A stretch of 8,395 nt of DNA. Origin: a virus (taxonomy: Monodnaviria; Loebvirae; Hofneiviricota; Faserviricetes; Tubulavirales; Inoviridae). Position numbers and translations under genes: made by a program. The stretch lies in the IMG/VR virus record IMGVR_UViG_2537562014_000001. One strand, 5' to 3'. The notes under the pieces are model-generated. The model was not told the origin of the DNA, did not search any database, and worked only from the letters and a program-made list of their open reading frames with translations. Shown here one piece after another: positions 4,128 to 4,390 of the stretch (positions are counted from its first letter, which is position 1; each line of letters opens with the position of its first letter).

Positions 4128-4286
4128 TTACAAAAAAGATGAAAAAAGTGTTTTTGTCAGGGAAAACACATACCCGAAGCCAAAACCGGCAAGCCAGCTG
4201 ATGGCCCATATACCAAAAAGTGCAACAAGCGGAGGATAAGAACCCACGCCGGATATTGTCACAAGAAAATTTGCCTCAGAAAGCAT
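4128..4286 (-). CDS. Small hydrophobic virion/assembly protein, 52 aa (gIX position)
   Basis: Hand translation of the minus strand: MLSEANFLVTISGVGSYPPLVALFGIWAISWLAGFGFGYVFSLTKTLFSSFL-stop. The start ATG overlaps the stop region of the upstream 33-aa ORF (TAATAATG). It ends 20 nt before the coat gene RBS. Below the ORF-track length cutoff. Confidence 0.45.
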   Translation of the reverse strand: MLSEANFLVTISGVGSYPPLVALFGIWAISWLAGFGFGYVFSLTKTLFSSFL

Positions 4287-4288
4287 TA

Positions 4289-4390
4289 TTAACGCCTTCC
4301 CGTAATGACTCCACCAATAAAAGCCAGTGAAAATATCAGCACTGGCACAGCGCCAAAGAGAATAAGAATAAAAAATTCCGCTACTGACAT
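4289..4390 (-). CDS. Minor coat protein pVII-like, 33 aa
   Basis: Hand translation: MSVAEFFILILFGAVPVLIFSLAFIGGVITGRR-stop. Size, hydrophobicity and C-terminus (GGVITGRR) resemble Ff pVII (33 aa, ...ALGIIAGGQR, recalled). Lies between gV-position gene and coat gene as in Ff. Weak RBS (GAG); probably translationally coupled. Confidence 0.5.
   Translation of the reverse strand: MSVAEFFILILFGAVPVLIFSLAFIGGVITGRR

Follow-up and report, generated by a model that had tools for sequence, protein, structure and literature searches.

Gene content and organization of the prophage

The window, that is, the whole stretch of 8,395 nucleotides that was analyzed, is an Ff-like filamentous (inovirus) prophage of E. 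coli. According to the ORF listing, the minus strand carries all phage genes of the window, arranged in the classical Ff order, and two small genes, designated ORF33 and ORF52, are located between the gV-position gene and the coat gene. The following features were found:

5032..6873, minus strand: replication protein of the GPA type (Pfam Phage_GPA, 5e-48)
4414..4839, minus strand: gV-position gene, 141 aa, presumed ssDNA-binding protein (ORF)
4289..4390, minus strand: ORF33, 33 aa, proposed pVII equivalent (ORF, homologues in five clades)
4128..4286, minus strand: ORF52, 52 aa, proposed pIX equivalent with an N-terminal extension (ORF, homologues in five clades)
3832..4107, minus strand: major coat gene (gVIII equivalent), 91-aa precursor with a signal peptide (ORF, PHROG matches)
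3795..3811, minus strand: intrinsic terminator, a GC-rich hairpin followed by a T-run, directly after the coat gene (sequence)
2451..3776, minus strand: gIII attachment protein, 441 aa, with an N1 domain (Pfam Phage_Coat_A, E 7e-8; phrog_8482 attachment protein)
2089..2448, minus strand: gVI-position gene, 119 aa, hydrophobic (weak matches to phrog_1944 and phrog_17485 "minor head protein")
825..2081, minus strand: gI, Zot-type assembly ATPase, 418 aa (Pfam Zot, E 9e-10; phrog_1675)
465..815, minus strand: gIV secretin, N-terminal stub of 116 aa (phrog_1012 "protein IV of M13", E 2e-19)

The gene order therefore reads II-V-[33]-[52]-VIII-terminator-III-VI-I-IV. The features that identify the window as an Ff-like Inoviridae genome are the N1 domain of gIII, gI of the Zot type, gIV, the canonical gene order on one strand, and the terminator after gVIII. 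The latter follows the coat gene as it follows gene VIII in Ff, and its placement is that of the stem-loop annotated after gene VIII of IKe. The coat gene is preceded by a strong Shine-Dalgarno sequence (AGGAG, 4121..4117), and its precursor product matched phrog_17608, as well as phrog_1859 "major head protein" at E 6e-4.

The replication protein is GPA-type, whereas the Ff replication protein is pII-type. The 141-aa gV-position protein gave a weak match to Putative_G5P in Pfam, below the threshold (E 0.03). Its gene moves together with the GPA-type Rep as a replication module and is 88%–89% identical at the nucleotide level to its counterpart in another clade of these prophages (clade B, described below), despite the very different structural genes of that clade. 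The nearest isolated-phage relatives of the gI protein are the Ff phages, with 33% identity over 219 aa to gene I of fd/M13/f1 (tblastn, E 1e-22). In GenBank phage records, gI was the only query from the window that matched Ff phages by tblastn, and blastn and tblastn searches of these 50,697 records returned nothing meaningful for the region, the coat protein, ORF52, or the gV-like protein.

The secretin gene gIV is interrupted by an IS21-family element, fragments of which (IstB_IS21) were found at 12..455 on the plus strand; gIV is intact (406 aa) in locus L001, from E. coli strain UTAK-18 (NZ_CP157132), which carries tandem prophages. Since gIV is cut by the insertion sequence and the Rep gene is frameshifted, the prophage copy in the window is probably defective. 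The element is present in 54 of 5,426 complete E. coli genomes, frequently as tandem copies. No canonical E. coli dif site was found in the window at up to three mismatches. Divergent dif-like sites were seen.

Reading frames and translation starts of ORF33 and ORF52

Both small genes start with ATG. ORF33 (4390..4289) encodes a protein of 33 aa, MSVAEFFILILFGAVPVLIFSLAFIGGVITGRR, and ORF52 (4286..4128) encodes a protein of 52 aa, MLSEANFLVTISGVGSYPPLVALFGIWAISWLAGFGFGYVFSLTKTLFSSFL. The coordinates, translations, and lengths previously proposed for them in a sequence-only reading agreed exactly with the ORF listing. That reading had also described an overlap of the ORF33 stop with the ORF52 start, which has to be corrected: the string is TAA-TA-ATG, with a spacer of 2 nt. 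The spacer between the gV stop and the ORF33 ATG is 23 nt, and that between the ORF52 stop and the coat ATG is 20 nt.

Only a weak Shine-Dalgarno sequence (GAG, 4396..4394) was found 3 nt from the ATG of ORF33. In every clade, the start of the ORF33-family gene lies 4–23 nt past the upstream gene or overlaps it. A weak start close to the upstream stop is reminiscent of gene VII of f1, the start of which is coupled and intrinsically defective; according to Ivey-Hoyle and Steege, f1 gene VII is reportedly coupled to gene V. ORF52 is preceded by the Shine-Dalgarno-like sequence GGAAGG (4300..4295), located within the end of ORF33 and 8 nt before the ATG, and terminates at the double stop TAATAA. 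Low expression would be expected, because the ORF33 start is weak and probably coupled and ORF52 starts immediately behind ORF33.

The listing contained 92 ORFs of at least 25 aa in the 8.4-kb window. Short ORFs are thus frequent by chance, and the case for the two genes therefore rests on conservation. No further small hydrophobic ORF was found in an intergenic slot on the minus strand of the window.

Conservation within the window lineage

The lineage of the window, clade A, was represented by 15 loci with the same structural module, collected from E. coli chromosomes and IMG/VR. Both frames were intact in all 14 loci of good quality; the fifteenth is a 9.6-kb circular "plasmid" with frameshifts throughout. 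Upstream, the clade-A structural module was joined to at least four different replication modules:

Module 1: GPA Rep and the 141-aa gene
Module 2: 115-aa SSB, 94-aa ORF, and 374-aa Rep
Module 3: 90-aa SSB and another Rep
Module 4: 111-aa protein and a "replication initiation factor" Rep

The modules meet either in the final codons of the upstream gene (shared AAACTGTAA) or within codons 2–8 of ORF33. The allele with the junction inside ORF33 (MLTTEFFV...) retained the ATG, the frame, and a length of exactly 33 codons. The ORF33/ORF52 pair was linked to the coat/structural module and never to replication or regulatory modules.

Conservation across clades

Five diverged clades of enterobacterial inoviruses carry a homologous pair in this slot, just before a homologous coat gene, with amino acid identities of 21%–70%. 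Clade B (L003) is a second type of E. coli prophage, in which the coat protein is 27% identical to that of the window and the gVI-position protein is marginally similar. Its 46-aa protein is 42% identical to ORF33 (E 3e-5), and its 56-aa protein is 36% identical to ORF52 (E 4e-8). When local-alignment scores between the window and clade B were compared with those of shuffled sequences, z values of 7.4 for ORF33 and 8.9 for ORF52 were obtained.

A word-indexed protein search with ORF52 and the 56-aa and 46-aa proteins of clade B returned near-identical clusters only. An exhaustive search of 1.84e9 representative proteins with the ORF52-family profile yielded only five genuine clusters, all in an inovirus context directly upstream of the coat gene. 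The new ones (P0005, P0008, and P0009) comprise proteins of 54–58 aa, and in each case the next gene of the inovirus is a homologous coat gene. In all three of these loci, an ORF33 homologue of 33–35 aa, uncalled there, directly precedes the ORF52 homologue; the 35-aa form of clade E is called by gene finders in other assemblies. Two other matches of the same search, P0006 and P0007, were repeat proteins and were discarded as spurious profile hits.

One of these three phages (L027) encodes an Ff-type Rep (Phage_CRI and G2P_X_C) and has the complete Ff gene order. Another, of clade E, is represented by at least two loci on one E. coli chromosome, and clade C contains an additional, very hydrophobic 75-aa ORF in the interval between gV and the coat gene. 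Further scans of IMG/VR returned clades A and B only, and species-representative genomes scanned with the ORF52-family and coat alignments contained no confirmed locus.

The ORF33 family is characterized by the motifs M-x3-[ED]-[FY]-[FL], A-P, and F-x3-F-x2-G; its clade-B member has a C-terminal tail of 13 aa. In the ORF52 family, an acidic N-terminal segment is followed by a membrane helix with the motif W-x3-W-[LIM]-[AL]-G-[FL]-[GA]-x-G, and the length is 52 aa in the window and 54–58 aa in the other four clades. The second protein had been suggested to be a lineage-specific variant of greater length, which was borne out: its acidic N-terminal segment of about 20 residues is present in all five clades.

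Selection on the reading frames

Of the 28 polymorphic sites found inside clades A and B, 21 were third positions of codons in the proposed frames (binomial P = 7.8e-6). The sites were distributed as follows:

ORF33, codons 10–33: 3 synonymous and 0 non-synonymous sites
46-aa homologue (clade B): 5 synonymous and 2 non-synonymous sites
56-aa homologue (clade B): 9 synonymous and 4 non-synonymous sites

Nearly all polymorphisms would be non-synonymous in the other two frames. Several of the synonymous changes in the 56-aa homologue lie within the N-terminal extension (first 21 codons), which supports translation of the extension in clade B.

Between clades, where synonymous sites are saturated, dN/dS was 0.13–0.50 for the ORF33 family and 0.28–0.71 for the ORF52 family, in the same range as for the neighboring coat gene (0.20–0.66). 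The check to which the sequence-only reading had tied its proposal, conservation of the frames in related prophages, was therefore passed: the frames are syntenic and kept under purifying selection even where the flanking structural genes have diverged to 26%–30% identity. Judging from these comparisons, ORF33 and ORF52 are almost certainly real genes.

Predicted properties of the proteins

ORF33 contains one very hydrophobic segment (residues 7–25, summed Hessa dG of -2.5). Its N-terminal part includes Glu5, and the chain ends in Arg-Arg, apart from which it has no Lys or Arg. Its AlphaFold2 model is a single helix comprising residues 3–31 (pLDDT 94.7). ORF52 begins with an acidic segment of about 19 aa, which is followed by a single hydrophobic segment and a short tail that contains Lys45, the only Lys of the protein. 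Its model comprises a short helix at residues 4–12, predicted with low confidence, and a long helix at residues 18–51 (pLDDT ~90). Transmembrane-helix prediction, also proposed earlier as a check, thus gave one hydrophobic segment and a single membrane helix in each protein. No signal peptide was found in either protein.

The N-terminal segment of ORF52 has a net charge of -1, and those of the other clades have -4. Members of both families have an acidic N-flank and, in most cases, a basic C-flank, a layout comparable to that of the pVII and pIX controls from M13 and IKe. The exceptions are the ORF33 homologue of L027, which lacks a basic residue at the C-terminus, and those ORF52 homologues in which the C-flank is net acidic. 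A basic residue a few positions past the hydrophobic core of the ORF52 family was found in three of the five clades. The two genes are real, conserved, and syntenic, and they share this helix and charge layout.

Annotation of the two genes in databases

ORF33 was never called by RefSeq/PGAP in the genomes examined, and its exact sequence was absent from about 15 billion predicted proteins. ORF52 was called by PGAP in some genomes as a "hypothetical protein" (WP_001409627.1) and omitted in others; in the same collection of about 15 billion proteins, it was present from 109 contigs. PHROGs contained no family for ORF33 or ORF52, although the larger proteins of the prophage, including the 116-aa gIV stub, were represented. 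Most likely, the pair is an expected feature missed by annotation pipelines and not a new kind of system. Its one mildly unusual property is that the protein in the pIX position is extended at the N-terminus throughout the family.

The RefSeq annotations and a collection of about 15 billion predicted proteins lack a gene of 33 codons on which virion assembly probably depends. The five-clade alignments could seed HMMs for pVII- and pIX-position genes where Pfam and PHROG models fail, and prophage completeness would then be easier to judge. The extension modestly varies the structure known from the round tip of Ff and is possibly of interest for phage display, since pIX N-termini tolerate fusions.

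Sequence comparison with the pVII and pIX families

None of the ten family members matched PF19978 (Inovirus_G7P_2), phrog_7781 (pVII), or phrog_10143 (pIX), with a permissive threshold used for the ORF33 members. In control searches, pVII of M13 and IKe matched PF19978 at 1e-21 and 2e-17, respectively, M13 pVII matched phrog_7781 at 5e-20, and M13 pIX matched phrog_10143 at 3e-26. The Pfam copy used has no pIX model, because the pIX controls missed as well.

A claim of demonstrated homology to M13 pVII and pIX was rejected. BLASTP produced no alignment of these proteins with the small ORFs, phmmer searches of PDB and hmmsearch profile searches returned spurious membrane-helix matches only, and Smith-Waterman comparison with shuffled sequences gave z ~2.4 (p ~0.03). 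For profile comparison with hhalign, reference alignments were built from the pVII and pIX proteins of M13, If1, IKe, and I2-2 taken from GenBank records. The ORF33 family versus the pVII family was the best of the four cross-comparisons, with a probability of 29.7% and E 5.6e-4 for columns 10–29 aligned in register with columns 10–29, the profiles being shallow and hydrophobic (Neff ~2). The others gave 0.9%–7.5%, including 0.9% for the ORF52 family versus pIX and 7.5% for the ORF52 family versus pVII.

ORF33 may therefore be a very remote pVII homologue, as far as its sequence can indicate. ORF52 has no sequence link to pIX, and on sequence neither protein is filed in the Ff pVII/pIX families. 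The coat and gVI-position proteins of the window also miss their Pfam families, and the core proteins of filamentous phages are typically of low identity (PMC10011098). Given also the 33% identity of gI, the family misses weigh little against functional equivalence.

Proposed role in virion assembly and alternatives

In Ff phages, pVII is present in five copies at the leading (round) tip and is required for the initiation of assembly at the packaging signal. ORF33 and ORF52 are probably the functional counterparts of Ff pVII and pIX, that is, leading-tip proteins that would initiate assembly. We infer the tip and initiation role from synteny and physico-chemistry, and we likewise infer virion location, copy number, and translational coupling.

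The steps proposed here are modelled on Ff (PMC10175506). Both proteins, having no signal peptide, would enter the inner membrane with periplasmic N-termini and cytoplasmic C-termini, as suggested by the charge layout. At the pI/pIV export machine, a few copies of each protein would encounter the gV-coated ssDNA at its packaging-signal end, replace the gV-like protein there, and form the leading ("round") tip. In this tip, ORF33 would be the buried inner helical bundle and ORF52 the outer ring, whose acidic N-terminal extension, about 20 residues long, would be exposed at the outermost end. The coat protein encoded by the next gene would then polymerize on the tip, and pIII and pVI would terminate the filament. 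A bolder version, which we consider doubtful, is that ORF52 is more than a long pIX: its conserved, partly helical extension would form a distinct exposed tip cap, which during extrusion could contact the host envelope or the gate of the secretin, and ORF33 and ORF52 would represent two previously unrecognized tip-protein families of a few enterobacterial inovirus clades.

The two genes could instead encode real small inner-membrane proteins that are not part of the tip, such as accessories of assembly or export, proteins of superinfection exclusion or membrane modulation, or, in the case of ORF52, a pVIII-like minor filament protein. This is unlikely, but it would agree with the lack of sequence membership in the pVII and pIX families and with the layout of ORF52 (about 20 acidic aa, a helix, and a short tail in 52–58 aa), which is as close to mature M13 pVIII (50 aa) as to pIX. 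The 75-aa hydrophobic ORF of clade C lies in the same interval, and therefore not every small hydrophobic gene there need encode a tip protein. On the contrary, Ff-type assembly requires a pVII/pIX-like initiating cap (PMC10175506), for which the window offers no other candidate, and the pair is always tied to the coat/structural module. Moreover, ORF33 has the length, helix, and charge layout of pVII, in addition to the weak in-register profile match, and the tail of ORF52 is devoid of the lysine cluster by which pVIII coats DNA.

If the tip assignment is accepted, the roles could be swapped or shared, with ORF52 as the inner bundle and ORF33 as the outer ring, or with no one-to-one mapping. 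We consider this very improbable. It could draw on the slightly higher hhalign value of ORF52 against pVII than against pIX, and on the z value of 2.5 for the 56-aa protein of clade B against M13 pVII. However, gene VII consistently precedes gene IX in M13, IKe, If1, and I2-2, the best profile match, obtained in register, is that between ORF33 and pVII, and the position of pVII as the buried core in f1 suits the shorter, extension-free ORF33 better than ORF52.

That the interval from gV to the coat gene is a non-coding spacer or leader in which these frames are open by chance has a negligible probability and, on the sequence data, is effectively refuted by the conservation tests: short ORFs are abundant, and ORF33 has a poor Shine-Dalgarno sequence and has never been annotated, but the proteins are conserved in five clades in spite of saturated synonymous sites, substitutions are biased to the third position of these frames and nearly all non-synonymous in the alternative ones, and the frames are intact in 14 of 14 loci, with frame and length kept across a recombination junction.

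Comparison with known filamentous phages

By their descriptions, YpfPhi, CUS-1, and UPPhi are, like the element in the window, filamentous prophages of E. coli that often form tandem arrays. In dif-integrating enterobacterial inoviruses, genes II and V are common to phages with unrelated structural modules (PMC7307601), and the window lineage displays the same modular mosaicism as was reported for the YpfPhi/CUS-1/UPPhi group. The structural genes of UPPhi are IKe-like, with about 70% amino acid identity (PMC7307601), whereas those of the window have no match to IKe or I2-2 except for the distant similarity of gI. One related prophage copy adjoins hipBA.

The placement of the pair at the position of Ff pVII and pIX, as originally claimed, is correct: the two genes lie between the gV-position gene and the coat gene, as in M13, IKe, If1, and I2-2. 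The order VII then IX is kept in the GenBank records of these four phages, and clades B–E have the same slot order.

In f1, pVII (33 aa) and pIX (32 aa) have no signal sequence and form a single helix each (PMC10175506). The negatively charged N-terminus of pVII is located at the very tip, and the positively charged C-termini (Arg33 of pVII and Arg26 of pIX) face the packaging-signal DNA (PMC10175506). In the round tip, pVII forms the buried core, and pIX and pVIII are packed around it (PMC10175506). Display on Ff pIX works at the N-termini only, and N-terminal additions are tolerated by pIX (PMC10175506).

ORF33 resembles pVII of the Ff/IKe phages in its size (33 aa versus 29–33 aa in M13, If1, IKe, and I2-2), in its location directly after gV and before the pIX-position gene, in the absence of a signal peptide, and in the single predicted helix. 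The acidic N-terminal residues, the C-terminal Arg, and the C-terminal half rich in small residues are also shared. Unlike Ff pVII, it has a more hydrophobic N-terminal half and the conserved motifs E-[FY]-[FL] and A-P, and it is not recognized by the pVII family HMM.

ORF52, like pIX, is signal-less and tightly packed between the pVII-position gene and gVIII. It contains a single long helix of about 34 residues as predicted, which is about the size of the whole pIX, and the basic residue after the core of the ORF52 family is comparable to Arg26 of pIX. The family differs from pIX in its length of 52–58 aa versus 32–33 aa, being 20–26 aa longer than any pIX of the Ff group, in the failure of the pIX family HMM and profile to detect it, and in the presence of the extra acidic N-terminal segment of about 20 aa and the W-x3-W-[LIM]-[AL]-G-[FL]-[GA]-x-G motif. 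As judged by analogy from the predicted features, ORF33 fully fits the description of f1 pVII, and ORF52 fits that of pIX as a pIX-sized helix with an N-terminal appendage.

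Modular exchange of replication genes

At least four unrelated replication modules were found fused to one and the same structural module (the window and the loci L004, L010, L055, and L056-L059). The crossover lies either in the last codons of the upstream gene, which are common to the loci (AAACTGTAA; window 4414..4422), or within codons 2-8 of ORF33, the proposed pVII equivalent. The varied replication modules on the same structural module represent a clear case of modular exchange among E. coli inoviruses. In clade C, a diverged enterobacterial lineage, an additional ORF of 75 aa, extremely hydrophobic, separates the ORF33 homologue from the gV-like gene (L024, 3648..3875), and its stop overlaps the start of the homologue in an ATGA motif.

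State of the prophage copy

The secretin gene gIV of the window is truncated next to an insertion sequence remnant:

1..455, plus strand: 3' part of an IS21-family istB, broken across two frames, adjoining the gIV stub
465..815, minus strand: gIV stub encoding the N-terminal 116 aa, abutted by the istB part

Intact gIV of the relatives encodes 406 aa, versus 116 aa here; the window's prophage copy is predicted to be unable to export virions without help. The gene for the replication protein Rep was compared with an E. coli UTAK-18 relative (L001, 99.8% identical) and a clade-B E. coli prophage (L003). Relative to both, one nucleotide is missing from a C-run at ~5060..5066 (minus strand), so that the last ~48 Rep codons are frameshifted, and downstream of it a 6-nt duplication, CTTGGA, was found at ~4898..4910 (minus strand). 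These differences reflect either sequencing error or decay of the window's copy.

A related inovirus genome was also found deposited as a circular 'plasmid' of strain JNE25-005 (NZ_AP045060.1; 9,613 bp). It carries an ISEc31 insertion and many frameshifts and is probably a replicative form with assembly errors.

TolA-domain protein

7278..7643, plus strand: gene whose 121-aa product combines a signal-peptide-like N-terminus with a TolA C-terminal domain (Pfam PF06519, E 4.5e-12)

The gIII of the same prophage contains a TolA-binding N1 domain (Phage_Coat_A match), and superinfection exclusion is a candidate role for the 121-aa protein, which would act in the periplasm as a TolA decoy.

Integration

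Clade-E inoviruses carry at their left end an IS110-family transposase gene (DEDD_Tnp_IS110; L053 3462..4415, L054 3465..4418, CP027437.1) and occupy at least two separate chromosomal loci within a single E. coli genome (CP027437.1), which together suggest transposase-mediated rather than XerCD integration. The right part of the window contains the following elements:

7863..7964: pair of inverted dif-like sites around a GC-rich hairpin, with XerC-type arms AGTGCGCATAA and AGTGCGCACAA and XerD-type arms TTATGTTGAAA and TTATGTGTAAA
7960..8072 and 8271..8377: direct repeat of ~115 nt at the right end, copies 84-90% identical, spacing ~305-311 nt

Either a prophage end or a host repeat element could account for the direct repeat. 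A search of the window that allowed up to three mismatches gave no canonical E. coli dif; the inverted dif-like sites with their hairpin recall the folded single-strand attP of CTXphi.
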